Of a stretch of DNA of 64,000 bases, positions 3,437-40,862 are shown piece after piece (the stretch's first letter is position 1; every line of letters starts with the position of its first letter). The position numbers and the translations under genes were made by a program. Under the pieces are notes generated by a model. The model saw only the letters and a list, made by a program, of their open reading frames with translations, had not been told where the DNA came from and ran no database searches. Source of the DNA: an uncultured Candidatus Poseidoniales archaeon (GTDB lineage: Archaea; Thermoplasmatota; Poseidoniia; Poseidoniales; Thalassarchaeaceae); the NCBI GenBank assembly GCA_963934165.1, contig CAWVXH010000002.1, positions 123,746 through 187,745 on the forward strand, written 5' to 3'.

Positions 3437-3687
3437 AATCGCCCTGTTCAGATGAACTGATATACAACCATTACCAATTCGTATCGATGGTGGACACTGA
3501 CAACGGAACTGGTATTCAGAATCTAGTCGAGACTCCAATCTATGGTGACCTGACCAATCCCCTTTGATTCAACTGTTAATCGGTTATACTAGACTCAGAT
3601 TACCTAATCTGTTTGAATATTGAAGAATAAGCAAGCAACCTACTCATCATAATGTTTCAAGTTCCGTATCATCCCCGCATTACTGGG

Positions 3688-5028: not shown

Positions 5029-5063
5029 TAATAATTAGGGCGAACGAATGAGTCACCCCTCAG

Positions 5064-5189
5064 TCAATCGGCGTGCTATTCTATCGCGCTGATAATTTTC
5101 CTTTCAATCATGCAATATGGCACCTATTCGTTCTTGCGGGCTCAATCGCACACTATTTCGCAATCCTGAACAGCGTCATTCAGGGTTAG
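5064..5189 (+). pseudogene. 3'-terminal remnant of a hemolysin III/PAQR (YqfA-like) gene
   Basis: Hand translation gives SIGVLFYRADNFPFNHAIWHLFVLAGSIAHYFAILNSVIQG*, carrying the HAIWHLFV..G...H signature. No start codon; in-frame TGA at 5049. Confidence 0.8.
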
Positions 5190-7972
5190 GTGAACACGCT
5201 CTTGCGATGGAAGGAAGATTTAGGATACATTCCAGCCATCTTAATCTCGCTGACCCACTCCTTCCCTTTCTTGCTGTGGCCATACATCACCTCACCGGGA
5301 CTTACCTTCCAGTTCCACTGCTGCTCGAATACCTTGGCATCCTCTAGGTTCTGACACAGCTTCCTAGGCACTACATGGTACATCGACAGGATGTTCTCGC
5401 TTCTTCGGAAGTACTTGGCGATGACTTCTGGGAGCATCTCGCTGAGCCAGGTCTCGCTGACCACCTTGACCTCCCTCGGTATAACATATCGGGGGTTGTC
5501 CAGAGGTCCTAGAATCTCCTGCATCGCCTCGGCGAAAATCTCTGAATCCTCCTCTGAAGCATCCTCTAGGTAAGCCCTCATCCAACCCCCTCCTCTGCTC
5601 CCTCCTCCAACCTTGGCATCGAACTGGATTAGGCCCAAAGCCTGTAGGGAGCAAGCGACAGCCTCCCCGATTGCTTGAATCAGGGATTCGTCTGACCAAG
5701 CGACAAGACCGATCCTGTTAGCCGGAGGGAATCCTTCTCCGAATGATCCTTTGATCTCGATTGCTTCTCTTGGCACTGAGTTGAAGGGTTGTCCAATCCC
5801 CCACAGTTCTCTTGCCCTTCCTCTGTTCCTTGCTCTCATCAACATCTCTTCGTTGAATATCTCCATCGTTTCCGAGACGCCTTCCGGCTCGGCTTCAGTG
5901 AAAGCAGCGTGAACGTGTCCCACCCCCTTCTCAATGGCGCCGTCGTCACAGACTCCGTACAACTGCTTATGCTTCCTCTTGAATCGGAGATAGTCATCGA
6001 ATCCTTTGGTGAACTCGTCAGCCAGGCAGACTATGTCCCAATTGTTAGCTACCTTCTCAGGCCAGTGCTTGTCCAGCCTGAACGACCTTCCTCTCAGTTG
6101 ATTTATACTCATGCTGGTGGTCACTGTGGTCAGATCCACTAGGACGTTGATTCTGCTCGCGTCCCAGCCCTCGCCGAGTAGCCCCCTTGTTCCCACTAGG
6201 CACTTCGTCACTCCATCTTGGAACATCTCGGTAATCATCATCGTATAGTGGCGTGGCAGCCAGTCCTTTCCCTTACCTCTGATTTCGAAGTAACCGCCTC
6301 TCTCGATATAATCGAACTTGATATTCAGATTCCTCTTGGAGACCCACTGCTCAAAACGAGGAAATATCCGCTCTAGGAGGTCGTCGTCCACCAATACGGT
6401 CGTGCCCGTCATCAGCACCGGATCCAGCCTGTCAGTCGACTCACATCCGAGCACCGCTCTGTATGCTGCTACTGCTCCACCGGCGTCATCATCGAGGACG
6501 CCTTCTACCAAGGCAGTAGCCGAGGTCTTCTCGAAGTCGGTCACGATCACTGCCCGAATTTCCGGTCCGAGGGCCTCCATCTCCACCCTCAGTATGTCTC
6601 GCAGAGCATCATACTTGGCGGAGGCGTAAGCCATCACCCTGCCGACAGGTGAAGCACATAGTCTGGGGCCACCCTCAGTAATCTGGACGCCAAGCATCCT
6701 CAGTTTGCTCTTTGCATCCTCAGCAAGGGCATGGTCCTCCTCGCTTTCCGACCTCATTAGACCATTCCTGATGTAGCGATCGAGTATCGTGATCAGCACA
6801 TCCATACTATTGCCTCCGGCCACGAGTTCGGCCGACGGCTGCGGTACACCTTCGGGCAGGTTGAGTCCGGCTGCTGCGAGGTAGGCTCTAGCAGCGTCCG
6901 CGAGCCTCGGGTCTCTTCTCTGGAAAGAGTTCCAGTCCTTCGCTCTGCCAGCCGGCAGAATCAGTCCATCGAGCACTTTGGCGATCCAGACCTCGAGTCT
7001 TGGTGTGCGACCCTTGACGTTCTCCGCCCCCCTCCTCAGTTCACCTAGTAGGCTCTTGAAGTCCTCATCTACATTAGCGATGTATCTCAGTTCTCCCGGA
7101 GAGGGGCGTACGAAGTATGCGAGGTCTTGGTAGGGAGAGAGATTGCCGTCCCTGACTAGGGCAGGAACGGGGACCTCGTAATCAACCTCTCCGAACAGGT
7201 CGAAGTATTGATCGGCCGAGGAGTTGCTGGCTCCCTCCGGAGGAGTGGCAGTGAGACCGAGAACAACTGGATTCCCGAGGAATTCCATGGCCTCGATGAG
7301 AACCCTGCCCCAGTGATCCATCAGGTGATGGCACTCGTCGAGGATGACTAGGCCGACTCCTGCTTCCGAGAGTCTCTTCAGATTGGCCTTCGCGGACTCG
7401 TGGAGGATCCATAGGGCATTCCCATGCTCGGATAGCGAATCCCTGACTTTCTTCCTGTAGTGCCCCATTCTGTCAGAGTAGTATTCGAAGTTCTTCTCCC
7501 GCAGGTCGGCTATCCAGGCCAACGCGCTTTCCCGGTCGTCCGCCTCGACCGAACCGTCGTTCAAGTCAGGAGTCATCAGACTGGAGAGCCACATCTCCAT
7601 CGCAGACTCGTCTAGCTCTCCTCCTCCTCTCTTTGGGAGAGTCACCGACTGGTAGGTCAGCGAGGTCAGTATACCCGGGTTTTCGGGGTCAGTGCCTATT
7701 TCTGACTCCCTGTCATCCAAGTGGAATAGTTCCTTGGCCCTCTCGATCCATTGGGCCTGTATGGCCGAGTTCGGGCTAAGCACCAACGTGGGCAGTCTGA
7801 CTAGGTCTGACCAGACATACAGTCCAAGTACGGTCTTCCCGGAGCCAGGAGGAGCCACGATTAGCAGTTCTCTGGATCCTGATTCCAACTCCTTTCTGAT
7901 TATGCTGGAAGAAGCCACCTGAGACGGCCTGAGTGTTCCCGAGAAGCCAATCTTGCCGAAGCCATCGCTCAT
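5186..7972 (-). CDS. SF2 DEAD/DEAH-box helicase (ResIII/SSL2-like)
   Basis: APPGSGKT (motif I), DECH (II), LTAT (III), GEGWD (V), QLRGR (VI). Visibly GC-richer than its flanks. Confidence 0.9.
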   Translation of the reverse strand: MSDGFGKIGFSGTLRPSQVASSSIIRKELESGSRELLIVAPPGSGKTVLGLYVWSDLVRLPTLVLSPNSAIQAQWIERAKELFHLDDRESEIGTDPENPGILTSLTYQSVTLPKRGGGELDESAMEMWLSSLMTPDLNDGSVEADDRESALAWIADLREKNFEYYSDRMGHYRKKVRDSLSEHGNALWILHESAKANLKRLSEAGVGLVILDECHHLMDHWGRVLIEAMEFLGNPVVLGLTATPPEGASNSSADQYFDLFGEVDYEVPVPALVRDGNLSPYQDLAYFVRPSPGELRYIANVDEDFKSLLGELRRGAENVKGRTPRLEVWIAKVLDGLILPAGRAKDWNSFQRRDPRLADAARAYLAAAGLNLPEGVPQPSAELVAGGNSMDVLITILDRYIRNGLMRSESEEDHALAEDAKSKLRMLGVQITEGGPRLCASPVGRVMAYASAKYDALRDILRVEMEALGPEIRAVIVTDFEKTSATALVEGVLDDDAGGAVAAYRAVLGCESTDRLDPVLMTGTTVLVDDDLLERIFPRFEQWVSKRNLNIKFDYIERGGYFEIRGKGKDWLPRHYTMMITEMFQDGVTKCLVGTRGLLGEGWDASRINVLVDLTTVTTSMSINQLRGRSFRLDKHWPEKVANNWDIVCLADEFTKGFDDYLRFKRKHKQLYGVCDDGAIEKGVGHVHAAFTEAEPEGVSETMEIFNEEMLMRARNRGRARELWGIGQPFNSVPREAIEIKGSFGEGFPPANRIGLVAWSDESLIQAIGEAVACSLQALGLIQFDAKVGGGSRGGGWMRAYLEDASEEDSEIFAEAMQEILGPLDNPRYVIPREVKVVSETWLSEMLPEVIAKYFRRSENILSMYHVVPRKLCQNLEDAKVFEQQWNWKVSPGEVMYGHSKKGKEWVSEIKMAGMYPKSSFHRKSVFT

Positions 7973-8045
7973 ACTAGTTTCATGCTGGGCGGGTTACATG
8001 GTTTACTATTTCCCTATACTGCTGGATTAGAGGGTACCCATCCGA

Positions 8046-10478: not shown

Positions 10479-11534
10479 TCATAATCCAATCGCTGAGAGA
10501 ACCGATTCGAGGTTCGCATCAACGAGTTTTGTCTCTGTTTTCGAATTTTTAATTGCTATATCGGGATCTTTGAGTCCGTGGCCCGTCAATGTTGCAACGA
10601 CAATGCTCCCTGATGGAATTTGCCTTTTTCCTACGGATTTCTGAAGACCGGCAATAGAAGCCGCTGATGCCGGTTCACAAAACACACCAGCATAACGTGC
10701 GAGAAGCCTCTGTGCGTCGAGAATTTCTTCATCACTAACCCAGTCAATCTTGCCCCCTGAATTATTTGCTGCCTCAATAGCTGAATCCCAACTTGCAGGG
10801 TGACCTATGCGTATGGCTGTAGCGACCGTCTCCGGGTTGTCGATGGGCTTTCCGAGAACGAATGGGGCAGCACCTTTTGCTTGCCAACCCATCATTTTCG
10901 GAAGTTTCGAAGATATATTATGGGATTTATATTCATTATAACCCATCCAGTAAGCTGTAATGTTGCCTGCATTACCAACAGGTAAGAAATGGAAATCAGG
11001 AGAGTTTCCTAATTCATCAACGATTTCAAATGCCGCTGTTTTTTGCCCCTGAATGCGGTAGGGGTTGATGCTATTCACTACCTCAAAATCATCAATTCTA
11101 CCGAGTTTTCGCACTATTTCTAGTGCTTCGTCAAAATTTCCTTTTATTGAAATTGTTTGAGCGCCGTGCATCAAAGCTTGTGCTAATTTTCCAAGAGCAA
11201 TTTTGCCTTCTGGAATCAGGACTATGCACTTTATTCCAGCCCTAGCCGCATAGGCAGCCGCAGCCGCACTGGTATTGCCTGTACTTGCGCATACTATTGC
11301 TTTAGCACCATTTTCCACGGCCTTAGTAACCGCCATGCACATTCCTCTATCCTTGAAAGAACCCGTTGGGTTCAAGCCTTCGAATTTTAAAAATAACTCG
11401 AACTCTCCTCCCAGTTTCTCTACGAGTCGTTCGGCTGAAATAAGTGGGGTGTTTCCTTCAGACAATGAGATAATTTCTGTGCTAAGGCCCACTGGGAGGA
11501 AGTTTCGATAAGATTCGATGACCCCCTTAGTCAT
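10479..11534 (-). CDS. thrC: Threonine synthase
   Basis: [39 protein letters not shown] and TGHGLKD motifs. Confidence 0.95.
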
Positions 11535-11669
11535 GGATTGTCGCGTTTGATTGGGCAATTGAACTTCACTGCGTCTTCCTTTGAAAATAACGGATAATAA
11601 AAGAAAAGTTGACTCAGCAACATACCATAGATTGAATGCCGAACTTACCTACGAGCGATTGGTGCCAGC

Positions 11670-13046
11670 ATGAGTGAGTGGACAAAACCAATCGACACCG
11701 GCTTGATTCCCAATGACGGGTCTCATTTTGATGTAATCGTAGTTGGTGGGGGTCCGGCTGGCTCAGCAGCTGCATCATACAATGCCATGAATGGCTGTAA
11801 AGTATTATTGATCGAAAAAAACGTTTGGCCTAGAGACAAAGTTTGTGGCGATGCTGTAGGAGGAAAATCACTTACCCATGTGAAGGAATTGGGTGTTTTT
11901 GATTTAGTCGAATCCACACCTCATTATGTTGTTGATTCAATACTCTTCGGTAGTGCAAATGGAGCTGAGGTTAGGGTCATGTTACCCAAAGATGCATATG
12001 CAAAAATGGGCTTACAGTCAGGTTTCGCTCTACCGAGAATTCAATTCGATTATATGATGTTCAAACGAGCGAACGAAATTGTTCAAGAAAAGGGTGGGGC
12101 CGTCATTCAAGGTCATGATGTTACCGAAATTATTGTTGAGGGGGAGGGGGTTACTTCACAAATTTCTGGAGTGAAATGCAGATTGGGGGGGCGAAGGTCA
12201 GAAGAACCGGAATTAACTTACACATCAGCCCTAACGATAGGTGCTGGAGGCTATAATTGCCCGGTATCTAGAACGATTACTGAGAAAATTTTTCATGAGC
12301 CGCACCGAAACGATAAGCATTTTTGTGGTGGATATAGACAATACTGGGAGAATGTAGGGGGATTGACTGGAGAAGAAGGGCAAATTGAAATACATTTTAT
12401 CGATGAGGTTTTGCCTGGATATTTCTGGCTCTTTCCAATAGGAAATGGCATAGTAAATGTTGGAATAGGTATGTTGATTTCTGAACAAAGAAAACAAAAG
12501 GGAAAGAAAAAATCTCTCAAGCAAATTCAGAAATGGGTCATCGAAGAACATCCACGATTCAAAAATCGTTTTTCTGATTCAACTTTGATCGATGGTTCTT
12601 CAAAAGGATGGCAGCTTCCATTCGGATCTCCTCGAAAGAAAGCCCCCTCGTATCAGCCACGACGATCAGCTATGGCTGGTGCCATGTGCGTTGGAGATGC
12701 TGCTAGTTTGGTTGACCCGTTCAGTGGAGAGGGAATTGGAAATGCACTTCTCTCGGCCAAATTAACCGCTCAATATTTTGAACTTGGTCTGCATTCGAAT
12801 GGTTTTACAAATGAGGCGGCTGAAGAATATATGGTTGCCCTTTGGGATGTGTTGGGTAAAGAATTATCTAATTCATCAAAATTGCAACGGATTATGAAAT
12901 GGAAGAGATTAACAAATTGGTTTGTAAAGAAAGCTTCTAAAAAACCTGAAATTGGTATAATGATGTCGGAAATGATTGCCAGTAAAGAATCTCAAACTGT
13001 CCTTTGGAGCCCGTGGTTCCTAATGAAAACATTACTGCTACCATAG
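11670..13046 (+). CDS. Geranylgeranyl reductase family FAD-dependent oxidoreductase
   Basis: VGGGPAGS, PRDKVCGD, GYFWLFP, NVGIG and VGDAASLVDPFSGEGIGNA motifs. Confidence 0.9.
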   Translation: MSEWTKPIDTGLIPNDGSHFDVIVVGGGPAGSAAASYNAMNGCKVLLIEKNVWPRDKVCGDAVGGKSLTHVKELGVFDLVESTPHYVVDSILFGSANGAEVRVMLPKDAYAKMGLQSGFALPRIQFDYMMFKRANEIVQEKGGAVIQGHDVTEIIVEGEGVTSQISGVKCRLGGRRSEEPELTYTSALTIGAGGYNCPVSRTITEKIFHEPHRNDKHFCGGYRQYWENVGGLTGEEGQIEIHFIDEVLPGYFWLFPIGNGIVNVGIGMLISEQRKQKGKKKSLKQIQKWVIEEHPRFKNRFSDSTLIDGSSKGWQLPFGSPRKKAPSYQPRRSAMAGAMCVGDAASLVDPFSGEGIGNALLSAKLTAQYFELGLHSNGFTNEAAEEYMVALWDVLGKELSNSSKLQRIMKWKRLTNWFVKKASKKPEIGIMMSEMIASKESQTVLWSPWFLMKTLLLP

Positions 13047-13055
13047 GTGAAATAA

Positions 13056-13838
13056 ATGAATGATTTGAATGGAGATTTATCCGGAATCGAAGCGATCTTT
13101 CTTGATCTTGATGGGACCATCTACCTTGGTGGAAACTTAATAGAAGGTTCTATCGAATTTTTAAATCGATGTGAAGAACGGGGGATTCAGCGCTTCTTCT
13201 TATCGAATAATTCCTCTAAATCCGTATCGGAGTATTTAGCAAAACTGAATGGGTTAGGAGTTCCTGCAGAAGGAAAGGACATTTTGCTTTCAACTCACGA
13301 TCTGCTCTCTTGGTTGGCTAAAGAAGGAATTACTGAAACATACCTTGTAGGCACAAAAGGAATGAGTTCAATGCTAAAAGAAGTTGGAATAAAAACACGT
13401 AGTAATCAACCACAATATGTGGTACTTGGCTATGATACTGAAATTAATTATGAAAAATTGACTGCCGCTTCAATTCACCTTCATAATGGAGTGCCGCTTG
13501 TTGCATCCCACCCTGATATGGTCTGCCCTTCACCAGAGGGGGGGTTGCCCGATACTGGGGCATACATGGCGTTATTCAAAGCCACCACTGGAATAAGCCC
13601 CACACATATTTGTGGCAAGCCCAACCCTGGTATGATTCTGCATAAAATCGAAGAATTGGGATTGAAACCGGAGCAATGTGCAATGGTTGGAGATCGCCTT
13701 TACACTGATATGGAAATGGCCGAAAGAGCAGGGGTTCATGGAATTCTTGTTCTTTCAGGAGAAGCGACATCGGAGGACCTGGGGGCCGCCAGTCAAAACC
13801 CGTCATTAGTTGTTGAATCTATTGCTGAACTATGTTAG
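13056..13838 (+). CDS. HAD-IIA (NagD-like) phosphatase
   Basis: DLDGT, LSNNS, GKP and GDRLYTD motifs. Confidence 0.93.
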   Translation: MNDLNGDLSGIEAIFLDLDGTIYLGGNLIEGSIEFLNRCEERGIQRFFLSNNSSKSVSEYLAKLNGLGVPAEGKDILLSTHDLLSWLAKEGITETYLVGTKGMSSMLKEVGIKTRSNQPQYVVLGYDTEINYEKLTAASIHLHNGVPLVASHPDMVCPSPEGGLPDTGAYMALFKATTGISPTHICGKPNPGMILHKIEELGLKPEQCAMVGDRLYTDMEMAERAGVHGILVLSGEATSEDLGAASQNPSLVVESIAELC

Positions 13839-13851
13839 TGGTGCGTTGGTT

Positions 13852-14883
13852 ATGGATTCGAATATTGTTGTTGTAACCGGTGCTAGTGGATATATTGGTT
13901 GTCACATTGTTTCTAACTTACTGGGCCGTGGAAGACATGTTAGAGCTACTGTCCGAGATTTTTCGGATCCTGACAGGGTGGCTCATTTAGAAGCGCTAGA
14001 AATTGGTCAAGGGGGGTCATTAGAAATTGTTGAAATGGATTTGTTTGATATTGATTCTGTCAATAATGCAATTGCGGGGTCAGAAGAGGTCATTCACACA
14101 GCGGCCGCAGTGATGATAATGTCGTCAAATCCGCAATTAAAAATTGTTGACCCTAGCGTTATCGGAACCCAAAACATTGTTACAGCGATAGATAATAGTG
14201 ATTCCGTTAAATGCCTAATCCACACTTCTTCGACCGCAGCGATAAGGCCAACAAAATGGAAAAATGGAACTACACTAACTAGTGAAACATGGGCAGATGA
14301 TGCAACTCTGGAAAATAATCCATATGGATTGGCAAAAGTTAGTTCTGAACGAATTGTCCGAAATTGGCACTCTCAAAAGTCGGTTGATTCAAGGCAAAGA
14401 TTGGTTACAATTCATCCTTGTATGGTTTTCGGGCCACCAATGTCAACCCGTCATCTTCGAGGCTCTCTTGCTCTCATGATGACTGTACTGAGACGAGAGA
14501 TGCCTGTCGTCTTACCCATGCAAATCAATGTTGTAGACGTCCGAGATGTTGCTGAAGCTCATGTCAGAGCATTGACCGAGGGCGATGATGCGGGTCGCTA
14601 TCTTGTAACAGCAGGAGATGTTTCAATGAGGGGGATGGCTAAACTGCTCAAATCTCAATATCCAGACATGAATTTGCCTTCATTTGAACTACCCTACCCG
14701 CTTGCTTTGATTGCTGCTTTGTTCCATCCAAAAATTAGTGTGTCTTGGGCTAGAAGTCATCTTAAGAAAAAAATATATTGGGATTCTTCCCCGGCCAAAA
14801 AAGACCTAGGAATGGATTGGATTTCTCCTGCCGATTCAATTCTAGCGGCAGCAGATAAAGTAATCGAAAATGACTGGGTCTAG
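13852..14883 (+). CDS. NAD-dependent epimerase/dehydratase (aldehyde reductase/DFR-like extended SDR)
   Basis: VTGASGYIG, HTSS, YGLAK (YxxxK) and VDVRDVAEAH motifs. Confidence 0.9.
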   Translation: MDSNIVVVTGASGYIGCHIVSNLLGRGRHVRATVRDFSDPDRVAHLEALEIGQGGSLEIVEMDLFDIDSVNNAIAGSEEVIHTAAAVMIMSSNPQLKIVDPSVIGTQNIVTAIDNSDSVKCLIHTSSTAAIRPTKWKNGTTLTSETWADDATLENNPYGLAKVSSERIVRNWHSQKSVDSRQRLVTIHPCMVFGPPMSTRHLRGSLALMMTVLRREMPVVLPMQINVVDVRDVAEAHVRALTEGDDAGRYLVTAGDVSMRGMAKLLKSQYPDMNLPSFELPYPLALIAALFHPKISVSWARSHLKKKIYWDSSPAKKDLGMDWISPADSILAAADKVIENDWV

Positions 14884-31610: not shown

Positions 31611-31747
31611 ATTCAACCACATTGCATCCAACACAGGACACACTTGAACCTTGAGTAAGAGTCTATGATTAAGGCACCAAATTCATACCCAAACTAACAT
31701 CACCAACTTTAGTGGCGTTTATATCAAGGCCGAAAGTCGCCGGCGCC

Positions 31748-31978
31748 ATGAAGGCTTACCGTGTGATTGGAACATTCCGTAATGGACGGACGAATCAAGA
31801 GTTCACCACAGATATTGTTGCAGAAGATGAAGGGGACGCTGAACACCGTATTTTCTCTAATTTTGGTAGCCGCCACGGGTCGCCACGGAGAAACATCAAC
31901 ATTATTTCACTTGAGCAAATCAAACCCTCAGAGTCTATCGCGCCAGTAGTGGTTTCTCACTTCAGGGGCGGCGAGTAA
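31748..31978 (+). CDS. rpl18a: 50S ribosomal protein L18Ae (LX/eL20)
   Basis: MKAYRVIG..F...AE...AEHRIFSNFGSRH...RRNI.I; canonical TTTATA box 30 nt upstream. Confidence 0.92.
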   Translation: MKAYRVIGTFRNGRTNQEFTTDIVAEDEGDAEHRIFSNFGSRHGSPRRNINIISLEQIKPSESIAPVVVSHFRGGE

Positions 31979-32850
31979 TCAAAATCAGAGTACCCCAGCG
32001 TCAGATGGGCGTCCCCGAATCTAGTGGAATAGGCAGTTTTTATCTCATCGGTGAAGAAAGCCTCCCATTTTCTTAGTTTACCAGTTGAGATGTGGTGATG
32101 GGCCTCTATTTCTTCCTTAGTCATCCTATTCATATCATGGGCCCCTGCAACTTTCACACAATCCCTAACAATCTCTTCTTCAAAATTCAACCACCTAAAA
32201 ATCCGCTCAAATGAACCATCATAATCATTCATCATATCCTCCATTTTGATTGTTAGAACATTTTCCATGGTCCTCCATCCAACCATCTGCTGGACGGTGA
32301 TTCCCGCATAACCATCCATTTCGAAGACAAGACCCTCATCATCCCCCAGGCGACGCAAGTTTTCTTGGTAAGATATCCCCCCTAAGGACTCAACAAAACT
32401 CTCTCGTTGCCCTAGAGTGGCGCCATCCAATGGCCAAGGCACTTGGGGGAACCTTCTTTCAGGATTAGTGAAGTCAGTATTCAGGCACCACTGCTCGTCA
32501 CAGCGTTGATGGTACAGATATCCAGACACGATGACATCACGGGGATCTCTGATTATGCGCACCCCCCTATGCTCCTCTCCGATGACGCCCTCATCGACCA
32601 TACCGTGAATCAATTGAATCACGTCGGTGTTTTCTGGAATCTCCTTCACCAGCCCCCTGAGCCCACAAAACTTCCAACCCCTTTTTCTTGCGAGATCTCT
32701 GAAGACCGATCTAGTCAATTTAGTCCCAACTTTATGATGTGTGAGGAGGAACACCGGTGCGTCCAAACCACTCCCAAATACACTTCTTCGAATGTAGAGA
32801 ATAAACTGTCTAACTATCCACAATCCCGGCACATACATCCAGACAACCAC
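31957..32850 (-). CDS. PAPS-dependent sulfotransferase domain protein
   Basis: 5'-PSB-like THHKVGTKL, 3'-PB IIRDPRDVIVSGYLYH, KMEDM, and C-terminal G..RKW...F. Start taken at GTG 32850 (alternative ATG 32838); 3' end overlaps rpl18a by 22 bp. Confidence 0.85.
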   Translation of the reverse strand: MVVWMYVPGLWIVRQFILYIRRSVFGSGLDAPVFLLTHHKVGTKLTRSVFRDLARKRGWKFCGLRGLVKEIPENTDVIQLIHGMVDEGVIGEEHRGVRIIRDPRDVIVSGYLYHQRCDEQWCLNTDFTNPERRFPQVPWPLDGATLGQRESFVESLGGISYQENLRRLGDDEGLVFEMDGYAGITVQQMVGWRTMENVLTIKMEDMMNDYDGSFERIFRWLNFEEEIVRDCVKVAGAHDMNRMTKEEIEAHHHISTGKLRKWEAFFTDEIKTAYSTRFGDAHLTLGYSDFDYSPPLK

Positions 32851-32956
32851 TGGCTTGCGGGCGAACATCCAACATGAAACAATCGGAACCAACCAAACCA
32901 CACGAGTGACGGTTGGGCGCAACGGTGAAAACAGAATCATGAGAGGCGATGCTGTG

Positions 32957-33508
32957 ATGAAGAAATCCTTCATGCGTCAGTATTGGCGCATTCAACAAAG
33001 CCAAACCCTGATTTCAATGGGATTTTGGTGTACAACTCTTACCCTCCTCCTCTGGCCGTTGGTGAGTTGGAGATTCAAAGCGATGGACCCAGTATTCGGA
33101 ATACAACCAACTTATCTTGGTTTAATTGGGATTAGCCTAGGGGTCCTGTCTATCGTTCTGTTAATTGGCTGGGTTTACGATGTTTCATTCGGCCTTTGGC
33201 GCGAACACCTAACGGTTGTGCAAGAACGAAATCCATTTACAACATACAAAGTAAATGCACCATTTGGTATGCTACTTGCACAAACTAATACAATTTTGAG
33301 AAAAATGTCTGATGATGATGATGAGATACAACGCCATTGTGATTTCGTCGATCGTTGGTTAGAATGGAATTCGGAACAGGAAATTTGGGCCAGAACAATG
33401 TCTTCTTGGAAAGAAATTGTAGGGGACGAAGACCCTTTCCTCTATCATCTAAGTGAAGAGGCACGAACAAAGCTTGAAACTGCTGCAGATGAAATGCAAG
33501 ATTTTTGA
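32957..33508 (+). CDS. Hypothetical membrane protein (two TM helices)
   Basis: Two hydrophobic segments and an acidic C-terminus; stop overlaps the cysQ start. Start uncertain (32939, 32957 or 32972). Confidence 0.7.
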   Translation: MKKSFMRQYWRIQQSQTLISMGFWCTTLTLLLWPLVSWRFKAMDPVFGIQPTYLGLIGISLGVLSIVLLIGWVYDVSFGLWREHLTVVQERNPFTTYKVNAPFGMLLAQTNTILRKMSDDDDEIQRHCDFVDRWLEWNSEQEIWARTMSSWKEIVGDEDPFLYHLSEEARTKLETAADEMQDF

Positions 33509-34317
33509 TCGGAGTGACGCCCTTGGACGCAGAATCTATTGTCAAACTTGCAGAAGAGGCCGGGCTTGCAATTTTAGAAATATATAATCGCGCAGAAGGA
33601 TTTGATATTTGTAAGAAAAGTGACAATTCGCCTTTGACAGAAGCCGACATCGCAGCGCACAACGTCATTGTCGAGGGATTACAGTCATTGAATAACTTCC
33701 CAATTGTTTCGGAGGAAGGTAACGTAGGCGACCCTCTTTCGACTAACACTTGTTGGTTGGTCGACCCCCTCGATGGGACAAAGGAATTTATCAAGCGGAA
33801 TGGGATGTTTACAGTTAATATTGCCTTGATGAAGAAAAAAGGTAAACGTTGGTCACCACTTTTTGGGGTTGTTCATGCGCCCGTGACGAATACTACTTGG
33901 TGGGGAGGGGCATTACATCCTTCAGAAAGACAGGGCCCAAGTGGTTCCGGTTTGATGAGAGTAAACCCATCAAATCCCCCAAACCCAACAAGGCTAGTCG
34001 CAAGCGGATCACACAGAGGGGAGAAAGACGAATCTTTTGCAAAAACTCTCGGAAATTATGACTTAATTAGAATGGGCTCTTCTCTGAAGGCTTGTATTGT
34101 AGCTGAAGGTAATGCCGACTTATATCCTCGGTTTGGCCCCACTTCTTGTTGGGATATAGCAGCAGCACACGCAGTCGTCGCCGGCGCTGGGGGTTGTGTG
34201 TTAGGGCCTTCTGGCAAAACGCTTGATTATGATTTAGTTGACGATATTTTAAACCCATATTTCATAGTTGCAGCCGACAATCGTTGGAACGAGCAATGGA
34301 TAGCTCATCAGGACTGA
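33505..34317 (+). CDS. cysQ: 3'(2'),5'-bisphosphate nucleotidase (PAP phosphatase)
   Basis: KSDNSPLTEAD, SEE, WLVDPLDGTKEFI, GSSLK and YPRFGPTSCWDIAAAHA motifs. Confidence 0.93.
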   Translation: MIGVTPLDAESIVKLAEEAGLAILEIYNRAEGFDICKKSDNSPLTEADIAAHNVIVEGLQSLNNFPIVSEEGNVGDPLSTNTCWLVDPLDGTKEFIKRNGMFTVNIALMKKKGKRWSPLFGVVHAPVTNTTWWGGALHPSERQGPSGSGLMRVNPSNPPNPTRLVASGSHRGEKDESFAKTLGNYDLIRMGSSLKACIVAEGNADLYPRFGPTSCWDIAAAHAVVAGAGGCVLGPSGKTLDYDLVDDILNPYFIVAADNRWNEQWIAHQD

Positions 34318-35201
34318 ATCCACCAATCGGGGTTTGAAAAACCAGTCAACTCTTCCAAAAGTAAAAGGTCTTCATTCACCTTTTCTGCTAGAATCAATCG
34401 TTGCTCATCAGTGATTCCTCGCTTTTCAGGAGCTTTACTAGATAGAACTGGTATTTTGTATACATCCACACCCCTTCTTTGCAACCGCTTCACAACAGGT
34501 CCCTTTACGAAATTAGGTAATAAATTTGCAAGGCTACGAAATAGGCGGCCGAATAAAGTGGGGCGCCGCCTCTCAGAAGCAGTATTTGTGTTGTGTACCA
34601 TATCTAAATCAAAGGAAGAATCCTCGACGCCAATGTGCTCACAAATTTCTTTCAACACCTTCAATGGTTCCATCCGCATTCTCTTTGCCTCAATAATCAA
34701 AATAGAATCCAAATCAAAAAATTCCAACCACCTTGAGATGGAAGAACCATAGAGCGTATCGCACTGTAAACGAGAGTCAGACCAAGCCACCTCAAAATCA
34801 TTCCAATCCATATTATTTTCTTTATCTTCCTCTGTGCTGATGACCATATTCCAATGAGAAATCGTGCGACTGACCGGCTCCCGCAGAGAAACAATCAATT
34901 TCGCATCAGGCCAAGTTTCACTAATTCTCTGGGGGGCTGTTGGACAGGCCAATGCGTGAACCGAACAATCTATTCGAACTCCACTTTCTACGAAACAGCC
35001 AGCATACGCCTCCCAATTCGGTGGCGAAGCGTCTCTAGAAAAAGTTCCTTTGTGCGTGGCTACAATATTCGGCTCCTTAGGATCAGATACACAAATACCT
35101 GGGTGTTGAGAAAGGGCATCTGCTAACCAAGTGGTGCCTGCTTTGGGTGCACCCAGAAGAAAAGCACCGACGTCAGGAACCACTGGCTGACCGGCCTCCA
35201 T
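34308..35201 (-). CDS. PAPS-dependent sulfotransferase (heparan-sulfate-ST-like fold)
   Basis: GAPKAGTTWL...L.QHP, KEP, and KLIVSLREPVSRTISHW motifs. Confidence 0.88.
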   Translation of the reverse strand: MEAGQPVVPDVGAFLLGAPKAGTTWLADALSQHPGICVSDPKEPNIVATHKGTFSRDASPPNWEAYAGCFVESGVRIDCSVHALACPTAPQRISETWPDAKLIVSLREPVSRTISHWNMVISTEEDKENNMDWNDFEVAWSDSRLQCDTLYGSSISRWLEFFDLDSILIIEAKRMRMEPLKVLKEICEHIGVEDSSFDLDMVHNTNTASERRRPTLFGRLFRSLANLLPNFVKGPVVKRLQRRGVDVYKIPVLSSKAPEKRGITDEQRLILAEKVNEDLLLLEELTGFSNPDWWIQS

Positions 35202-35309
35202 AGAACCCCCGCTCGCCCTTCAGATATAGGAATTCACACTTTAATGGAGACCCCAACCATCCGTCGCAATGAAATACAGACCATATTTCGACCCAGCCCC
35301 AGAGGTGTA

Positions 35310-36197
35310 ATGATGAGCAACAAGGTAGTTTGGTTTACAGGCCTTTCAGGAGCAGGAAAAACGACAATCGCTATGGCAGCGGCAGACAGATATGGTTGTG
35401 AAGTGCTTGATGGCGACACGATTAGAGACTTCTTCGCGAACCACGACTTCAGCCGCGAAGGACGAGAAAGACACCTTCTCGGTATTGCTAAGATGGCGAA
35501 TATGATCTCGAAGCACACAGATGTTCTTTGTTCATTCATCACTCCTTACGAAGACGTTCGAGAGAAGATTCTAGAAATTCTCCCAGACAATGCAGTAATG
35601 GTACACATCTCAACCTCTCTCGAAGTTTGCGAGGAAAGAGATGTGAAAGGCCTCTACGCAAAGGCCCGCACCGGCGAGATATCCAGTTTTACAGGCATTA
35701 GCGACCCCTTCGATGAACCAAAGTGTGCACACATCACTTTGAATTCTAGTGGTAGTGAAGGCAATTCAGTTGACGATATGGTAAAGCAACTAGCACACTT
35801 GTTTGAGAAACCCAAGGCAACCCTTCTTCCAGGTCGCTGGCAACCCTTGCATGTTGGGCACGAATGGCTCATTCAGAGAGAACTCGACCAAGGTAAGAGA
35901 GTAGTAGTTGGTATCCGAGATACCCCAGTATCAGATTCAGACCCCTTCTCAACAGATGTTCGCAAGAGGATGATTGAGCATAGGTACGCCGACGAAGATG
36001 TTGAGGCATGGGTCATGCCTGATATTGAAGCAATTTCTTACGGCCGCAAAGTGGGCTATGAACTCCGTGAGGCTGACAATATACCCCCAGAGGTATTCGC
36101 AGTATCTGCTACGGGCGTCCGTGGTGGAAACAGAGCTAATGTTTCTGACAGAGTCATGGAATTCATGATCAATGAAGGAATTTGGGACGGCGAATAA
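35310..36197 (+). CDS. cysC: Adenylyl-sulfate kinase fused to a C-terminal HxGH nucleotidyltransferase domain
   Basis: Kinase motifs WFTGLSGAGKTT, LDGD, RDVKGLY, FTGISDPFDEP. C-domain motifs GRWQPLHVGH, GIRDT, ISYGRKVGY, VSATGVR. Confidence 0.92.
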   Translation: MMSNKVVWFTGLSGAGKTTIAMAAADRYGCEVLDGDTIRDFFANHDFSREGRERHLLGIAKMANMISKHTDVLCSFITPYEDVREKILEILPDNAVMVHISTSLEVCEERDVKGLYAKARTGEISSFTGISDPFDEPKCAHITLNSSGSEGNSVDDMVKQLAHLFEKPKATLLPGRWQPLHVGHEWLIQRELDQGKRVVVGIRDTPVSDSDPFSTDVRKRMIEHRYADEDVEAWVMPDIEAISYGRKVGYELREADNIPPEVFAVSATGVRGGNRANVSDRVMEFMINEGIWDGE

Positions 36198-36251: not shown

Positions 36252-36308
36252 AAGACAATCTTAGCCTAAGCGACGGCTTCATTGCACTCCTACACCCCCC
36301 ATGGCTCA

Positions 36309-36860
36309 ATGAGTACACCCGACAGGGCCGAACTGCAGCGAATTGCCCAAACCGTTGACACTAATCGTAAGCGGATGGAAGCCCTTGAACAACAGATTGG
36401 CAGATTGGAGCAAATCCGTATTGAACAAGTACAAACCATCGAAACATTGGCTGCGATTCCACCTGAAGGGGCCAAAGGGGCGATGATTCCATTGGGTTCT
36501 GGCGTGCAAATCATCGCCGATATTCCATCAAATCCTGGTGTAGTAATCGATATTGGTAGTCGCGTGCAGGCTGAAAGCACTCTTTCAGAAGCGTTTGATA
36601 CAATATCGGAAAGAGGTGAGGAATTATTGCGCCTCATAGAAAATTTAACAGAAGAGTTCAATAATTTGGAGCAAGAAACCCTTGTTTTAGCAAATATTTT
36701 CAATGAACAAATCACCGAACTCCAAGGCACAGAACCCGAATTATTCGGTAATGTTGGCGAAGAACCCCCCCCATCAACCAAGGCGGTGCCGATAACAACC
36801 GAATCGAAACCCAAGCGGCGCAAGAGGAAGCGCGGCACCGAGTTTACATTGGATGATTGA
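36309..36860 (+). CDS. pfdA: Prefoldin alpha subunit
   Basis: Coiled coils flanking MIPLGSGV and VVIDIGS beta-hairpins; directly upstream of ftsY as in the archaeal gene string. Confidence 0.85.
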   Translation: MSTPDRAELQRIAQTVDTNRKRMEALEQQIGRLEQIRIEQVQTIETLAAIPPEGAKGAMIPLGSGVQIIADIPSNPGVVIDIGSRVQAESTLSEAFDTISERGEELLRLIENLTEEFNNLEQETLVLANIFNEQITELQGTEPELFGNVGEEPPPSTKAVPITTESKPKRRKRKRGTEFTLDD

Positions 36861-36869
36861 GGTGTGTGA

Positions 36870-38156
36870 ATGGGATTATTTGATCGATTCAAAAAACAAG
36901 CCAAAGATGTGGTAGAAGAAGAAATCGCCGTTGAAGAAGGCTCAATTGAAGCAGAACTGGCTATTATCGAGCGACGAAAATTACTCGAGGCTATAGAGAA
37001 AGCAAAATTGACCGCACCCCCGCCCCCACCTCCTGGGTTTGAAGACTTTCAAGTAAAAGTCGAAGATGGATGGGATGATTTTCAAGAACAATTGGTCCCT
37101 GATCCATTTTCTCAGCCCGGGGATAAAAAACAAAGAAAACGAGCAGAAAGAGCAGCATCGGTTGAGCTTAGTGACTTGGTTGATACAGAATCAAAGCCAA
37201 AAGTTCGTGATAGAATGAAATCAACGACAGGTAGGAAACTAATAGCTGTGGAGCCAGCTACTTTCAATATAGATTTAAGCGAATCAGAAGTTTCTCGAGG
37301 AGGTCAAATAATCAAGAATAGCCCCGTATTGGACAAAATTCTTGAAGACCTTGAATTTGAATTATTAAGTGCAGATATGGGGCTCTCTGCGACACAAGAG
37401 GTAGTCGCCGCCCTGAGGGCAAACTTGATCGGCGCGCGAATTTCGAAGAAACAATCTTTAACGGAAGTTGTTGATTTAGCGCTCCGTAAATCGTTACTTG
37501 GATTATTGGAAGCCGGCTATTGGGATTTTGACAAAACCATCCAAGCATTTGTCGCTGCCGGTGGTCCGGTTTCGATAATGATTGTTGGAGTAAACGGCAC
37601 AGGAAAGACCACAACCACTGCAAAAATTGCACATCGCCTCTCAAATGAGGGATATTCAGTAGTGCTTGCAGCTGCCGATACATTCCGTGCCGGGGCAATT
37701 GACCAACTTGCCGCTCACAGCGAGCGCCTTGGTGTTCGTTGTGTTCGTAGTCAACGAGGAGGGGATTCAGCAGCGATCGCTCGTGATGCGATTGAGAGTG
37801 CGAGGGCAAAGGGTGACGACATTGTCATCATTGATACAGCCGGCCGGATGCAAAACAAGACCAATTTAATGGAAGAATTACGAAAAGTACACCGGGTCAG
37901 CCGCCCTCACTTGGTGTTATTTGTAGCAGATGCTCTGGCTGGAAATGACGCCGTAACTCAAGCGACCGTGTTCCAGAAAATTTTGAGTTTTGATGGCGCA
38001 GTGCTTTGTAAATTAGACACAGATGCAAAGGGGGGCGCAGCATTATCGATAGCTCATGCTACAGGTAGACCAATCGTACTCGCTGGTGTCGGGCAAGGCT
38101 ACGAGGATTTGTTAAACTTCGACCCAGAGTGGTTTATTGACTCGATAATTCAGTAA
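36870..38156 (+). CDS. ftsY: Signal recognition particle receptor FtsY
   Basis: GVNGTGKTTT, DTFRAGA, DTAGR, KLDTDAKGG and GVGQ motifs. Confidence 0.97.
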   Translation: MGLFDRFKKQAKDVVEEEIAVEEGSIEAELAIIERRKLLEAIEKAKLTAPPPPPPGFEDFQVKVEDGWDDFQEQLVPDPFSQPGDKKQRKRAERAASVELSDLVDTESKPKVRDRMKSTTGRKLIAVEPATFNIDLSESEVSRGGQIIKNSPVLDKILEDLEFELLSADMGLSATQEVVAALRANLIGARISKKQSLTEVVDLALRKSLLGLLEAGYWDFDKTIQAFVAAGGPVSIMIVGVNGTGKTTTTAKIAHRLSNEGYSVVLAAADTFRAGAIDQLAAHSERLGVRCVRSQRGGDSAAIARDAIESARAKGDDIVIIDTAGRMQNKTNLMEELRKVHRVSRPHLVLFVADALAGNDAVTQATVFQKILSFDGAVLCKLDTDAKGGAALSIAHATGRPIVLAGVGQGYEDLLNFDPEWFIDSIIQ

Positions 38157-38206
38157 ATGTAACGACCGAGTCGTTCATGAAGAAATCCTTTCGTGTGGTG
38201 TTTATC

Positions 38207-38863
38207 ATGGCGGGCGAAGAGACAAAGACGGCTCTCGTCGTCGTCGACAATCCAATTATTGAAGGTAGACTCAAAAGCGTCTTGTCTCGAAGGGGGTGGG
38301 CCATCGAAATTTGTGATGATGGGGATAAAGCCGTAGATGAATATGTCAAACTTCGCCCCGATTTGACTTTCCTTGCACTAGACATACCTTCGATGGACGG
38401 CCACGTGGCAGCATTAGAGATTCGCGAATCTCATGCTACTGCTCGGTTGGTTTTTGTCACCAGTAAATCGCGCCTGGAAAAAGCAGAAGATGCAGCATAT
38501 TCAGCAGGAGCGGTAGCAACCTTAGTTACGCCCCTGACAAAACTACAAATTGATGAAAGTTGGAATATGATAATGGGAAAAATTCCCGAGGCGCCAGGAG
38601 TTGCCGACCTCGATGCCCTCTATCCCAAAATGGAGGTGGCTGAACCACTGTTGCCACCGATTTCAATTATGCCTGAAATGCCCCCACTTCCCGCGATGCC
38701 GCCGGTCACCACTGAACCGTCTTCAGTAAAGGCAAAAAGCAAAAAATTACGCAATTTCCTGCTGCTATTGATAATTGCGGGAGGGTCAATCGGAGTTGCA
38801 AATTTTTTAGGTTATATTGACATACAACCAGTAATCGATAATTTACTCGCTTTCGTCGAGTAG
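38207..38863 (+). CDS. Receiver-domain protein (atypical) with Pro-rich linker and C-terminal TM helix
   Basis: CheY-like pattern DGDKAVDEY...RPDLTFLALDIPSMDG...AGA; canonical Asp and Lys appear substituted. Confidence 0.8.
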   Translation: MAGEETKTALVVVDNPIIEGRLKSVLSRRGWAIEICDDGDKAVDEYVKLRPDLTFLALDIPSMDGHVAALEIRESHATARLVFVTSKSRLEKAEDAAYSAGAVATLVTPLTKLQIDESWNMIMGKIPEAPGVADLDALYPKMEVAEPLLPPISIMPEMPPLPAMPPVTTEPSSVKAKSKKLRNFLLLLIIAGGSIGVANFLGYIDIQPVIDNLLAFVE

Positions 38864-39116: not shown

Positions 39117-40862
39117 ATGCATAATCGAAAAGCATGTATTGCCCTAATAATGACCGCCTGTCTTATGACTATGCCAATAGCCCTGGCAGACTCCAATGAT
39201 GACATACCAACTAATGCGACAAACACTGGTGTACACGACTCGCTCGTGGCCGCTCTGGACAAAGCAAATCTCGTTGCAACTCTGCAGGGAGAAGGTCCGT
39301 TCACTGTCTTCGCACCCACTGATCAGGCCTTCGCCGATGCCGGCATTGACTTGGACTCCTTCGACACCGACGAGGAGATTGCAGCGCTAACTGACATTCT
39401 GCTGTACCACGTGTACTCAGGAACTGTCTACGCTGCTGACGTCACTGACGGCATGACAGTCGTCATGGCGAATGCAGACCACCTTACTTTCTATGTAATG
39501 GACGACACAGTCTCTATGGGAGACGGATCGACTGTAACTATTGCAGACGTAGCCGCCTCAAACGGTGTAATCCACGTCATTGACAAGGTCCTGATGCCTC
39601 CAGCAGACGTATTCGACATACCCACGACTGCTCAGGGAACAGGTATCCACGACTCTCTCGTAGCGGCCGTTATCCAGGCAGATCTTCTTGAGACTCTACA
39701 GGGTGAAGGCCCATTCACAGTCTTCGCACCCACGGATCAGGCCTTTACCGACGCGGGCATCGACTTAGCTGCACTCGACACAGAGGAAGGAAAGGCAGCG
39801 CTAACTGACATCCTGCTCTACCACGTAGTTTCGGGCAGCGTCGAATCATCGGCTGTAACAGATGGTATGACAGCTGCTGCTGTCAACGGCGACGATCTCA
39901 GCTTCTCTGTCGGAGAGGGTGTAATGGTCAACGATGCCAACGTTATCCTTGCTGATGTAATCACAACCAATGGTGTAATCCACGTCATTGACAAGGTGCT
40001 AATGCCACCAGCCGATCTCGTAGATATTGCAGCCGTAGCAATGTCAACAGGAGTGCATGAATCATTAGTTGCCGCTCTAGTTAAGGCTGACTTAGTCAGC
40101 ACACTACAAGGAGATGGACCGTTCACAGTATTCGCTCCAACCGATCAAGCATTCACTGATGCTGGAATTGATTTAGATGCATTCAGCACAGATGAAGAGA
40201 TTACCGCTCTAGCAAATATCTTACTATACCACGTTTACTCAGGCGCAGTCAATGCAGCTGATGTAACCGACGGATTAACTGTTGCAATGGTTAACGGTGA
40301 TGATGCTACATTCACAGTAACAGATGGAACTGTAATGGTAGGGGATGCAACCGTAACTACAGCTGATGTAATGGCATCAAACGGAGTTATTCACGTCATC
40401 GACAAGGTGCTAATGCCACCAGCTGATGAACCAGTTATTCCTGAGGGATGTGATTTCGTAATCGGATTAAGTGACGATGGAACGGCTTTCGATAACACCG
40501 ATCTAAGTATTGCTGTGGGCCAGACCGTATGCTGGATTTGGAATGACGCAACTATGGCACACAATATCGCGCAAATAAAAGAAGAAGGAGATACGACAAG
40601 AGATGCTGCTGGAGAGTACAGCGGTACTGCAGCTACAACAATTGATTATCGCATCACTTTTACCGAAGATGAAATGTTCTATTACATCTGTGAACCTCAT
40701 GCAACAATGGGGATGAATGGACAAGTAGTTGTTGGAACTGGAATCAGTAAAACACCTACTACAGTAGTAGATTCAGATAACAATATCCCTGGATTTACAG
40801 CGGGTATTGCTGCAATAGCACTAATCGGTGCATTGGTTATCTCCGGCGCACGCCGTAGATAA
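39117..40862 (+). CDS. Cell-surface protein: 3 fasciclin (FAS1) domains + cupredoxin + PGF-CTERM
   Basis: Three TVFAPTDQAF...YHV...NGVIHVIDKVL repeats; HN and YICEPHATMGM type-1 copper ligands; IPGF, TM helix and RRR tail. Confidence 0.93.
   Translation: MHNRKACIALIMTACLMTMPIALADSNDDIPTNATNTGVHDSLVAALDKANLVATLQGEGPFTVFAPTDQAFADAGIDLDSFDTDEEIAALTDILLYHVYSGTVYAADVTDGMTVVMANADHLTFYVMDDTVSMGDGSTVTIADVAASNGVIHVIDKVLMPPADVFDIPTTAQGTGIHDSLVAAVIQADLLETLQGEGPFTVFAPTDQAFTDAGIDLAALDTEEGKAALTDILLYHVVSGSVESSAVTDGMTAAAVNGDDLSFSVGEGVMVNDANVILADVITTNGVIHVIDKVLMPPADLVDIAAVAMSTGVHESLVAALVKADLVSTLQGDGPFTVFAPTDQAFTDAGIDLDAFSTDEEITALANILLYHVYSGAVNAADVTDGLTVAMVNGDDATFTVTDGTVMVGDATVTTADVMASNGVIHVIDKVLMPPADEPVIPEGCDFVIGLSDDGTAFDNTDLSIAVGQTVCWIWNDATMAHNIAQIKEEGDTTRDAAGEYSGTAATTIDYRITFTEDEMFYYICEPHATMGMNGQVVVGTGISKTPTTVVDSDNNIPGFTAGIAAIALIGALVISGARRR

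Follow-up and report, generated by a model that had tools for sequence, protein, structure and literature searches.

The locus treated here raises the question of how a marine archaeon supplies its sulfotransferases with activated sulfate in the form of 3'-phosphoadenosine 5'-phosphosulfate (PAPS). It lies in a stretch of 64,000 nucleotides (the window; positions 123,746 to 187,745 of contig CAWVXH010000002.1, assembly GCA_963934165.1) from an uncultured Candidatus Poseidoniales archaeon of the family Thalassarchaeaceae (Marine Group IIb, MGIIb), where a group of genes separates the gene for ribosomal protein L18Ae (rpl18a) from pfdA and ftsY. An earlier note on this DNA had placed two sulfotransferases, a membrane protein, cysQ and a cysC fusion in this gap, and all of them were recovered there from the list of open reading frames (ORFs) together with Pfam and NCBIfam profile matches (Table 1). 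The fusion, which the note had treated as a detail, is the most interesting feature of the cluster. It joins an adenosine 5'-phosphosulfate (APS) kinase, CysC, to a small C-terminal nucleotidyltransferase-like domain, which we call miniNT. On balance, the sequence comparisons described below slightly favour the view that the locus is a native sulfate-activation and sulfation cassette of the Thalassarchaeaceae, with miniNT as a putative non-canonical sulfate adenylyltransferase.

To our knowledge, only two types of enzyme activate sulfate, namely Sat and CysDN. The earlier note had seen no cysD, cysN, sat, cysH or sulfite reductase gene in the window and had proposed a genome-wide search for sat and cysDN. 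In the whole source genome (1.47 Mb in 55 contigs, 82.74% complete), neither Sat (PF01747) nor CysD (TIGR02039) gave a match, and the same was true for sulfite reductase (PF01077), which extends the absence of these three from the window to the genome, while PAPS_reduct produced one marginal match of 22.5 bits. Because an APS kinase would serve no purpose if APS were not supplied, attention was directed to the domain fused to it. The description of the cluster as self-contained would hold only if miniNT, as a part of the CysC protein, makes APS, which we infer from the comparisons that follow.

Each query was searched in the same set of 151 Poseidoniales genomes, and the fusion was counted where a match covered miniNT or where a fragment at least 80% identical lay at a contig end. 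It was present in 32 of the 151 genomes, CysD above its cut-off in 19 and Sat in none; the 19 are exactly those in which CysC is part of a CysN/CysC frame of ~644 aa (CysNC). Fusion and CysD occur together in a single genome (G132), where the fusion shares one contig (C43) with CysQ and an additional copy of the membrane protein gene; these are 93–94% identical to the genes of the other family, and the contig is probably misbinned. Carriers of the fusion without CysD or Sat include a genome assembled into one contig of 1.6 Mb (G027) and another that is 97% complete (G023).

Both modules are also found in the same place. In genus g6, genome G121 shows the gene order L18Ae-sulfotransferase-membrane protein-CysQ-ST2-CysD-CysNC-pfdA-ftsY, and G027 shows L18Ae-sulfotransferase-membrane protein-CysQ-ST2-fusion-pfdA-ftsY. 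Within the source genus, G103 and G107 carry membrane protein-CysQ-CysD-CysNC-pfdA-ftsY, and the fusion takes the place of CysD-CysNC in G000 and G149. The CysD and CysNC proteins of G103 and G121 exceed the curated cut-offs (in G103, 534.7 bits vs. 413 for CysD and 1014.7 bits vs. 715 for CysNC). Because the CysD scores form two classes, of about 500–518 and about 410–416 bits, and the swap is seen inside two genera, the exchange happened more than once. Such mutual replacement at one site would be expected if miniNT takes over the function of CysD and CysN.

As the earlier note implied, the pathway genes are conserved together. A sulfotransferase is found in 31 of the 32 fusion genomes and 14 of the 19 CysD genomes, and CysQ in 27 and 10 of them, respectively; the nine CysD genomes without CysQ all belong to the Poseidoniaceae, in which CysDNC stands in another context. 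A short fusion of 256 aa in the Poseidoniaceae genome G102, which matches the family profile with 99.8% probability, adjoins a sulfotransferase of 79.8 bits. The note had further suspected turnover of sulfotransferases at this locus, and the content does vary between close relatives. In G149, whose fusion is 98% identical, ST1 is replaced by a 1347-aa protein without known family and a different sulfotransferase. The sulfotransferase is absent from the locus in G077, G103, G107 and G023, with some located elsewhere in the genome, and CysQ is absent in G021 and in G045, the latter with an alpha/beta hydrolase within the locus. The replacement genes of G149 occupy positions 10694–14737 of locus L039, and no Pfam family was matched by the 1347-aa protein.

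The fusion protein most likely starts at M24 (position 35313) and would then comprise 294 aa, because nearly all of 120 listed relatives have this length. Its kinase domain is matched by PF01583 over nearly the full length of the profile and reaches 133.2 bits on TIGR00455, just under the cut-off of 138.7. Solved APS kinases were found as relatives (5cb6 at 3.3e-29, also 2yvu and human PAPSS1), and the P-loop, DGD and KGLYxKAR stretches align with theirs. An alignment of 40 miniNT sequences (31–44% identity) revealed the motifs GRWQPxHxGH, IRDTP..NP, PDI..YGRxVGY and ISATxIR; residues G8, R9, H14, H17, S99, T101 and R104 are invariant or nearly so, and the family-specific motifs IRDTP and YGRxVGY each contain a conserved arginine. 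The single miniNT sequence matched the archaeal nicotinamide mononucleotide adenylyltransferase (NMNAT) 1f9a with an E value of 0.0034, and the 40-sequence profile matched it at 1.1e-13 over its N-terminal two thirds only. On TIGR01527, the model for archaeal NMNAT, the fusion scores 22.4 bits vs. a cut-off of 181.2 and is thus not a member. Because of this score and because a separate NMNAT-like gene exists on contig 4 of the source genome, miniNT is presumably not the cell's NMNAT. The miniNT profile could be aligned with this NMNAT-like protein only as far as the shared PDI motif, after which the remainder of NMNAT is replaced in miniNT by a shorter, family-specific segment containing YGRxVGY. 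Neither a GTPase nor a PP-loop domain was found in the fusion with Pfam and NCBIfam.

A structural model of miniNT, calculated with AlphaFold2 from the alignment, reached a pLDDT of 92.7 and a pTM of 0.84; a model of the full-length fusion from the single sequence was unusable (pLDDT 39.3, pTM 0.30) and supports no statement on how the two domains pack. When the miniNT model was compared with the PDB by Foldseek, NMNATs and phosphopantetheine adenylyltransferases (PPATs) ranked first, and no ATP sulfurylase was listed among the ranks shown (up to 50); a second, Foldseek-independent fold search did list ATP sulfurylases. The fold matches comprise the NMNAT 1f9a (Z 13.0, root-mean-square deviation (rmsd) 2.7 over 123 residues), the PPAT 4nah (Z 12.1, rmsd 2.9, 120 residues), the ATP sulfurylase 1v47 of Thermus thermophilus (1v47_B; Z 9.4, rmsd 2.9, 119 residues, 20% identity) and the Aquifex Sat-APS kinase 2gks (Z 7.8, rmsd 3.4, 119 residues), together with NadR chains (Z 9.0–10.4), 1j70 (Z 6.0) and human PAPSS1 1x6v (Z 5.6). 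Three distant members of the miniNT family gave PF01747 matches below the threshold (21.5–23.7 bits, cut-off 24.3). We conclude that miniNT is a trimmed member of the HxGH superfamily, which also includes Sat, but does not belong to the Sat family itself.

The domain is not confined to the Poseidoniales. A scan of 1.84 billion representatives returned 669 miniNT relatives at E≤0.001, and PF01583 was present, on either side of miniNT, in 64 of the 73 representatives scanned for domains, which were chosen mainly by length from 150 listed ones. A pattern search based on a 12-sequence alignment and restricted to one genome per species yielded 72 loci, which are biased by the pattern [LF]FIGRWQP towards that sub-motif. 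They come from Candidate Phyla Radiation (CPR) bacteria, Omnitrophota, Planctomycetia, DPANN archaea, Marinimicrobia, Marine Group III, Bacteroidota, Acidobacteriota and Proteobacteria, and in 47 of them miniNT and an APS kinase form one protein, in 17 their genes are adjacent and in eight neither is the case. Fifty of the 72 miniNT-bearing genomes were searched for the known enzymes; three contained Sat and five CysD above its cut-off, and nine more had a shorter CysD-like gene that matches model positions 1–205 only. Of 125 ORFs that neighbour the first 37 loci, 12 belong to Sulfotransfer_3, one of the commonest families there, four to Sulfotransfer_1 and three to Inositol_P. The neighbour families at these 37 loci include sulfotransferases, methyltransferases, ADI/DDAH-like proteins and radical SAM/B12-binding proteins. 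A recurrent gene order was seen at many of the loci L054 to L082 (Omnitrophota, Planctomycetia), with frames of ~341, 468 and 294 aa before the fusion and of ~255 and 485 aa after it, and may represent a pathway for a sulfated small molecule.

The Atlas places the miniNT domain nearest to phage clusters, and 19 phage records match it. Phages of Xylella, Stenotrophomonas, Xanthomonas and Clavibacter encode a short kinase-miniNT fusion of ~245 aa, in which the APS_kinase match (32–38 bits) covers the N-terminal half only and all motifs of the miniNT family are kept. Its cultured carriers are phages of Xylella, Stenotrophomonas and Xanthomonas, among them the siphophage loci L134 (Xylella phage Bacata, 4157–5333) and L135 (Stenotrophomonas phage DLP_6, 3590–4321).

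In the mechanism that we propose, miniNT would adenylylate sulfate with ATP to yield APS and pyrophosphate, and the fused APS kinase, which is assigned by strong homology, would at once phosphorylate APS to PAPS and thereby pull the unfavourable first reaction forward. The sulfotransferases ST1 and ST2, whose family is clear from their profile matches, would use PAPS to sulfate acceptors, of which the sugars of surface glycans are the most likely, and CysQ would, judged by homology, hydrolyse the inhibitory by-product 3'-phosphoadenosine 5'-phosphate. The pathway would end with sulfate esters and not with cysteine, and the sister genomes would use CysD and CysN/CysC instead of the fusion. We regard miniNT as a good candidate for the activating enzyme because of the mutual exclusion with CysD, the exchange in situ, the linkage to APS kinase, the conserved motifs and a fold compatible with that of ATP sulfurylase. 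We take a broader proposal to be evenly balanced between right and wrong: miniNT might represent a third, miniature class of ATP sulfurylase, which derives from NMNAT, comprises ~110–125 aa and activates sulfate only when coupled to APS kinase, and on which many lineages with small genomes rely mainly or entirely for PAPS. These lineages could, with equal reason for belief and doubt, include the archaea of Marine Groups IIb and III, CPR bacteria, DPANN archaea, Omnitrophota and Marinimicrobia, with some phages having taken the domain up.

Several observations weigh against this assignment. PF01747 gives no match on the fusion protein, and an hhalign comparison of the miniNT profile with three Sat sequences resulted in a probability of 22% and an out-of-register alignment, which was dropped as evidence of homology. 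By both sequence and fold, miniNT is closest to NMN and phosphopantetheine adenylyltransferases. No gene for a sulfate transporter could be identified; weak PF00916 matches near the locus were rejected, as the gene concerned is a Xan_ur_permease (101.5 bits). Most of the genomes compared are incomplete metagenome-assembled genomes (MAGs), and relatives among them cannot count as independent observations. In twelve Poseidoniales genomes with a sulfotransferase, no PAPS module was found, and none of the ten checked for an APS kinase contained one. Because the flanking housekeeping gene pfdA is missing as well in four of five such genomes checked, the locus is probably unassembled rather than absent there; the fifth has a contig that starts 400 bp ahead of pfdA. 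In the wider set, 17 of the 50 genomes searched contain Sat, CysD or the short CysD-like gene somewhere, and among 115 neighbours of the other 35 loci only four sulfotransferases and three arylsulfotransferases were counted, genes of the methyl cycle and sugar genes being commoner. Locus L093 of an Acidobacteriota MAG carries, directly beside an APS kinase-miniNT fusion and divergent to it (positions 3809–6951), genes for CysN (344.3 bits vs. a cut-off of 336.1) and for a short, 267-aa CysD (NF003587, 344.2 bits vs. a cut-off of 195). In this case, the sole one of its kind among the 72 loci, miniNT is not a replacement for CysDN. The phage fusions, finally, have no sulfation genes in view, and the copy in Xylella phage Bacata adjoins a gene for a NADAR-domain protein. 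The co-occurrence at L093 and the phage context are the chief grounds for caution on the function of miniNT.

The NADAR neighbour keeps an NAD-related reading alive, in which miniNT performs a different adenylyl transfer, as in NadR, and APS is made by an enzyme not yet recognised or comes from the surroundings. We consider this unlikely, even though archaeal NMNATs are the nearest relatives by profile and fold, NadR chains match the model, the phage homologues keep every motif away from sulfation genes and CysDN adjoins the fusion at one locus. The homology to the cell's own NMNAT-like protein stops at PDI, the TIGR01527 score is far below the cut-off, and the genome has a separate NMNAT-like gene; moreover, the kinase half is a full APS kinase and not a ribosylnicotinamide kinase. 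An NAD function would also leave the exchange with CysD and CysNC in situ and the near-perfect exclusion unexplained, and presence in only 32 of 151 genomes ill fits a housekeeping role. The same patchiness and the swap with CysDNC led us to reject a reading as a CoA synthase-like protein (PPAT and dephospho-CoA kinase). Degenerate enzyme domains serve as allosteric modules in sulfate activation, an example being the APS-kinase-like domain of fungal ATP sulfurylase, and miniNT is much shorter than any characterised relative. It might accordingly be a non-catalytic nucleotide-binding module that regulates or oligomerises the APS kinase, with APS synthesis lacking or proceeding by an unknown route. 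This appears improbable to us: the ATP-binding residues are invariant or nearly so across the 40 sequences, a stand-alone miniNT gene lies beside an APS kinase gene at 17 of the 72 loci, which would be unexpected for a regulatory appendage, and the source of APS would be left unexplained in 31 of the 32 fusion genomes.

A further possibility is that the cassette functions in assimilatory sulfate reduction, with sulfotransferases that are present only incidentally. Under the heading "potential for assimilatory sulfate reduction", Orellana et al. 2019 (PMC6864105) report cysD, cysN and cysC in MGIIb MAGs, so sulfate activation in this group is already partly published; in the passages concerned, the same authors describe MGIIa as lacking these genes and name sulfotransferases as users of PAPS, which itself speaks against a purely assimilatory role. 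No paper on the fusion or the miniNT domain was found in our literature searches. In five genomes representing both module types, among them the single-contig and the 97% complete ones, the sulfite reductase family NIR_SIR was absent throughout, and no PAPS reductase of CysH grade was detected, as the PAPS_reduct matches were either CysD itself or reached 22–26 bits. CysQ and the sulfotransferases travel with the module. Because of the missing sulfite reductase, the missing CysH-grade match and the alignment of ST2 with heparan-sulfate sulfotransferases, the cassette very probably supplies PAPS for sulfation and not for cysteine synthesis, as the earlier note had suggested, and we hold an assimilatory function to be very improbable.

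The sulfotransferases themselves were compared with known enzymes. Both exceed the family cut-off of Sulfotransfer_1, ST2 also that of Sulfotransfer_3, and they are the only two Sulfotransfer_1 matches in the whole source genome. For ST2, solved relatives were found with 3rnl (2.2e-14) and heparan sulfate 3-O-sulfotransferases (about 1e-7), and it aligns with heparan-sulfate 3-O- and N-sulfotransferases across its PKxGTT and RxPxxRxxS stretches. We take the PKxGT type to be the 5'-phosphosulfate-binding motif and the RxxxxRxxS type to be the 3'-phosphate-binding motif. For ST1, no relative of solved structure was found by sequence at E≤0.1; its translation contains the stretches RDPRDVIVS and HHKVGT, which were seen by eye and which we assume to be PAPS-binding motifs. 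The PAPS binding on which the sulfation reading of the earlier note depends is supported for ST2 by the alignment of both motifs to solved enzymes, and ST1 may share it. The true start of ST1 is probably downstream of the listed one, at 32868 or 32838, because the frames of its relatives comprise 283–312 aa and the ORF as listed runs at its 5' end into the divergent gene for the membrane protein. CysQ clears the cut-off of TIGR01331 narrowly.

Known systems resemble the fusion in different respects. Bifunctional PAPS synthases such as human PAPSS1 (1x6v) and the Aquifex aeolicus enzyme (2gks) likewise combine an adenylyltransferase fold of the HxxH superfamily with an APS kinase in one polypeptide; their APS kinase domain is clearly homologous, and their catalytic domain, like that of 1v47, can be superimposed on the miniNT model. 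Unlike these Sat-type enzymes, the fusion has no PF01747 match and reaches only 131 bits on NF004040 (cut-off 669), its adenylyltransferase part comprises ~125 aa vs. roughly 200 residues in the aligned region of Sat chains and more in the whole enzyme, and miniNT descends from the NMNAT branch. A PUA-like domain, which we assume to be part of the Sat enzymes, is lacking in the fusion. The CysD and CysN/CysC system shares the gene position and the neighbours (CysQ, sulfotransferases, pfdA) in the sister genomes and presumably yields the same product, PAPS, but it has an unrelated fold (PP-loop ATP pyrophosphatase and GTPase) and is driven by GTP, whereas the fusion contains no GTPase, and the CysC domains of the two are only about 40% identical. 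Archaeal NMNATs (1f9a, 1hyb; TIGR01527) represent the best match in sequence and fold, with the common motifs GRxQPxHxGH, NP, PDI and SxTxxR; in contrast to them, miniNT is about 40 residues shorter, has its own IRDTP and YGRxVGY motifs, loses alignment at PDI and is linked in cellular genomes to APS kinase and not to NAD genes. NadR (NMNAT and ribosylnicotinamide kinase) and CoA synthase (PPAT and dephospho-CoA kinase) are analogous pairs of a small HxGH adenylyltransferase and a P-loop kinase, and NadR and PPAT chains match the fold of miniNT at Z 9–12. Unlike both, the fusion possesses a full APS kinase half, and its patchy distribution and sulfation context ill fit an essential role in NAD or CoA synthesis.

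The genes of the locus and their flanks are listed in Table 1.

Table 1. Features of the sulfation cluster and its flanking genes in window coordinates; scores refer to profile matches, with family cut-offs in brackets.
Feature	Position	Strand	Evidence and remarks
Ribosomal protein L18Ae/LX	31712..31978	+	Left flank; NF001981 52.6 bits (40), PF01775 45 bits
ST1 sulfotransferase	31957..32973	-	Sulfotransfer_1 32.6 bits (22), residues 137-315; listed ORF 338 aa
Two-helix membrane protein	32957..33508 (best start 32957)	+	183 aa; without known family
CysQ, 3'(2'),5'-bisphosphate nucleotidase	33505..34317	+	TIGR01331 230.7 bits (228.8); Inositol_P 146.2 bits
ST2, carbohydrate-type PAPS-dependent sulfotransferase	34308..35201	-	Sulfotransfer_1 47.7 bits (22), Sulfotransfer_3 43.8 bits (27)
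CysC fusion ORF	35244..36197	+	APS_kinase 134.7 bits, residues 27-166; CTP_transf_like 25.4 bits, residues 194-260
APS kinase domain of the 294-aa fusion	35313..35810	+	PF01583, profile positions 3-151 of 152
miniNT domain, ~125-aa HxGH/ISxTxxR nucleotidyltransferase	35811..36197	+	CTP_transf_like; candidate sulfate adenylyltransferase
Prefoldin alpha (pfdA)	36282..36860	+	Right flank; TIGR00293 60 bits (53.9)
FtsY (signal recognition particle receptor)	36870..38156	+	Conserved partner of pfdA; TIGR00064 304.7 bits (260.7)

The membrane protein was counted as a component of the cluster in the earlier note, which did not hold up. It matches no Pfam or NCBIfam family, and its nearest Atlas clusters are hypothetical Thermoplasmatota proteins. 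It is present in 137 of the 151 Poseidoniales genomes and in all 22 genera, mostly without any PAPS gene; in most genomes the gene lies elsewhere, and its neighbourhoods differ between the two families. It is therefore a resident gene of the order and not a part of the sulfation pathway.

Because the GC content of the cluster (0.44–0.49) resembles that of the rest of the window, there is no compositional sign of recent transfer. A promoter and terminator scan, in which archaeal promoters are not modelled, yielded no excess of sites over shuffled sequence, and an Rfam search of the window returned a single tRNA and nothing else, with no rRNA in 4001–8000. This latter stretch has a raised G+C content (0.51–0.56 vs. 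about 0.44) and includes the 3'-terminal part of an MFS transporter gene (3652–5028) as well as a gene for a ResIII/DEAD helicase-like protein of 928 aa (5186–7972, minus strand). On the 3' side of ftsY, the window contains a gene for a receiver-domain protein with a hydrophobic C-terminal tail (38177–38863), followed by one for a protein of 581 aa with three fasciclin domains and a plastocyanin-like copper domain (39117–40862).

The junction between the L18Ae gene and pfdA was further analysed in 61 Thermoplasmatota genomes. Matches to both genes were obtained in 41 of them, always on one contig, and were at most 308 bp apart in 38 (173–180 bp in three Poseidoniaceae genomes). The three exceptions, with 4424 bp in the source genome, 4703 bp in G005 and 1035 bp in G002 between the model matches, all belong to the family of the source genome, which agrees with the statement of the earlier note that the two genes are usually adjacent and that the cluster splits them. 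In G002 the site is empty, and pfdA merely has a long N-terminal extension. In G005 the junction is occupied by genes for a group-1 glycosyltransferase, a fusion of GHMP kinase and NTP-transferase and a Polysacc_synt_2 protein. Genes that build or modify glycans seem to have a hotspot at this junction, which supports surface glycans as the target of sulfation. The locus with the G005 cassette (L137) spans positions 50300–57800 of contig C7, the ORFs lying at 608–1837, 1828–4056 and 4066–5070 of this locus, and this genome belongs to a related genus without PAPS genes. The locus is often found at contig ends (G075, G109, G111, G009, G099, G095 and G035), as are many of the fusion matches. The region appears hard to assemble or bin, which fits a strain-variable region that breaks assemblies.

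Contigs from metatranscriptomes of four runs in four studies, mostly at least 99% identical, overlap with the cluster in part, and the fusion gene is covered almost completely in each run. Since RNA libraries can contain DNA, they show the presence of the genes and do not prove transcription. In all four runs, the contigs over the fusion gene begin at 35310–35318, beside the predicted start codon at 35313, which is a weak hint of a transcript end.

If the proposed function of miniNT is true, annotation pipelines now score organisms that rely on it as unable to activate sulfate, and organisms with an apparently orphan APS kinase could make PAPS, which would change how sulfur metabolism is read from genomes. 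The fusion would then also provide a compact one-gene PAPS synthase for biotechnology. The cassette marks a variable site, at which strains differ in their sulfotransferases or, in one case, carry a sugar-activation cassette, which suggests that the cell surface differs from strain to strain in a group that is among the most abundant archaea of the upper ocean. In these abundant ocean archaea, and in many bacteria with reduced genomes, sulfate activation by miniNT would explain how the sulfotransferases are supplied.

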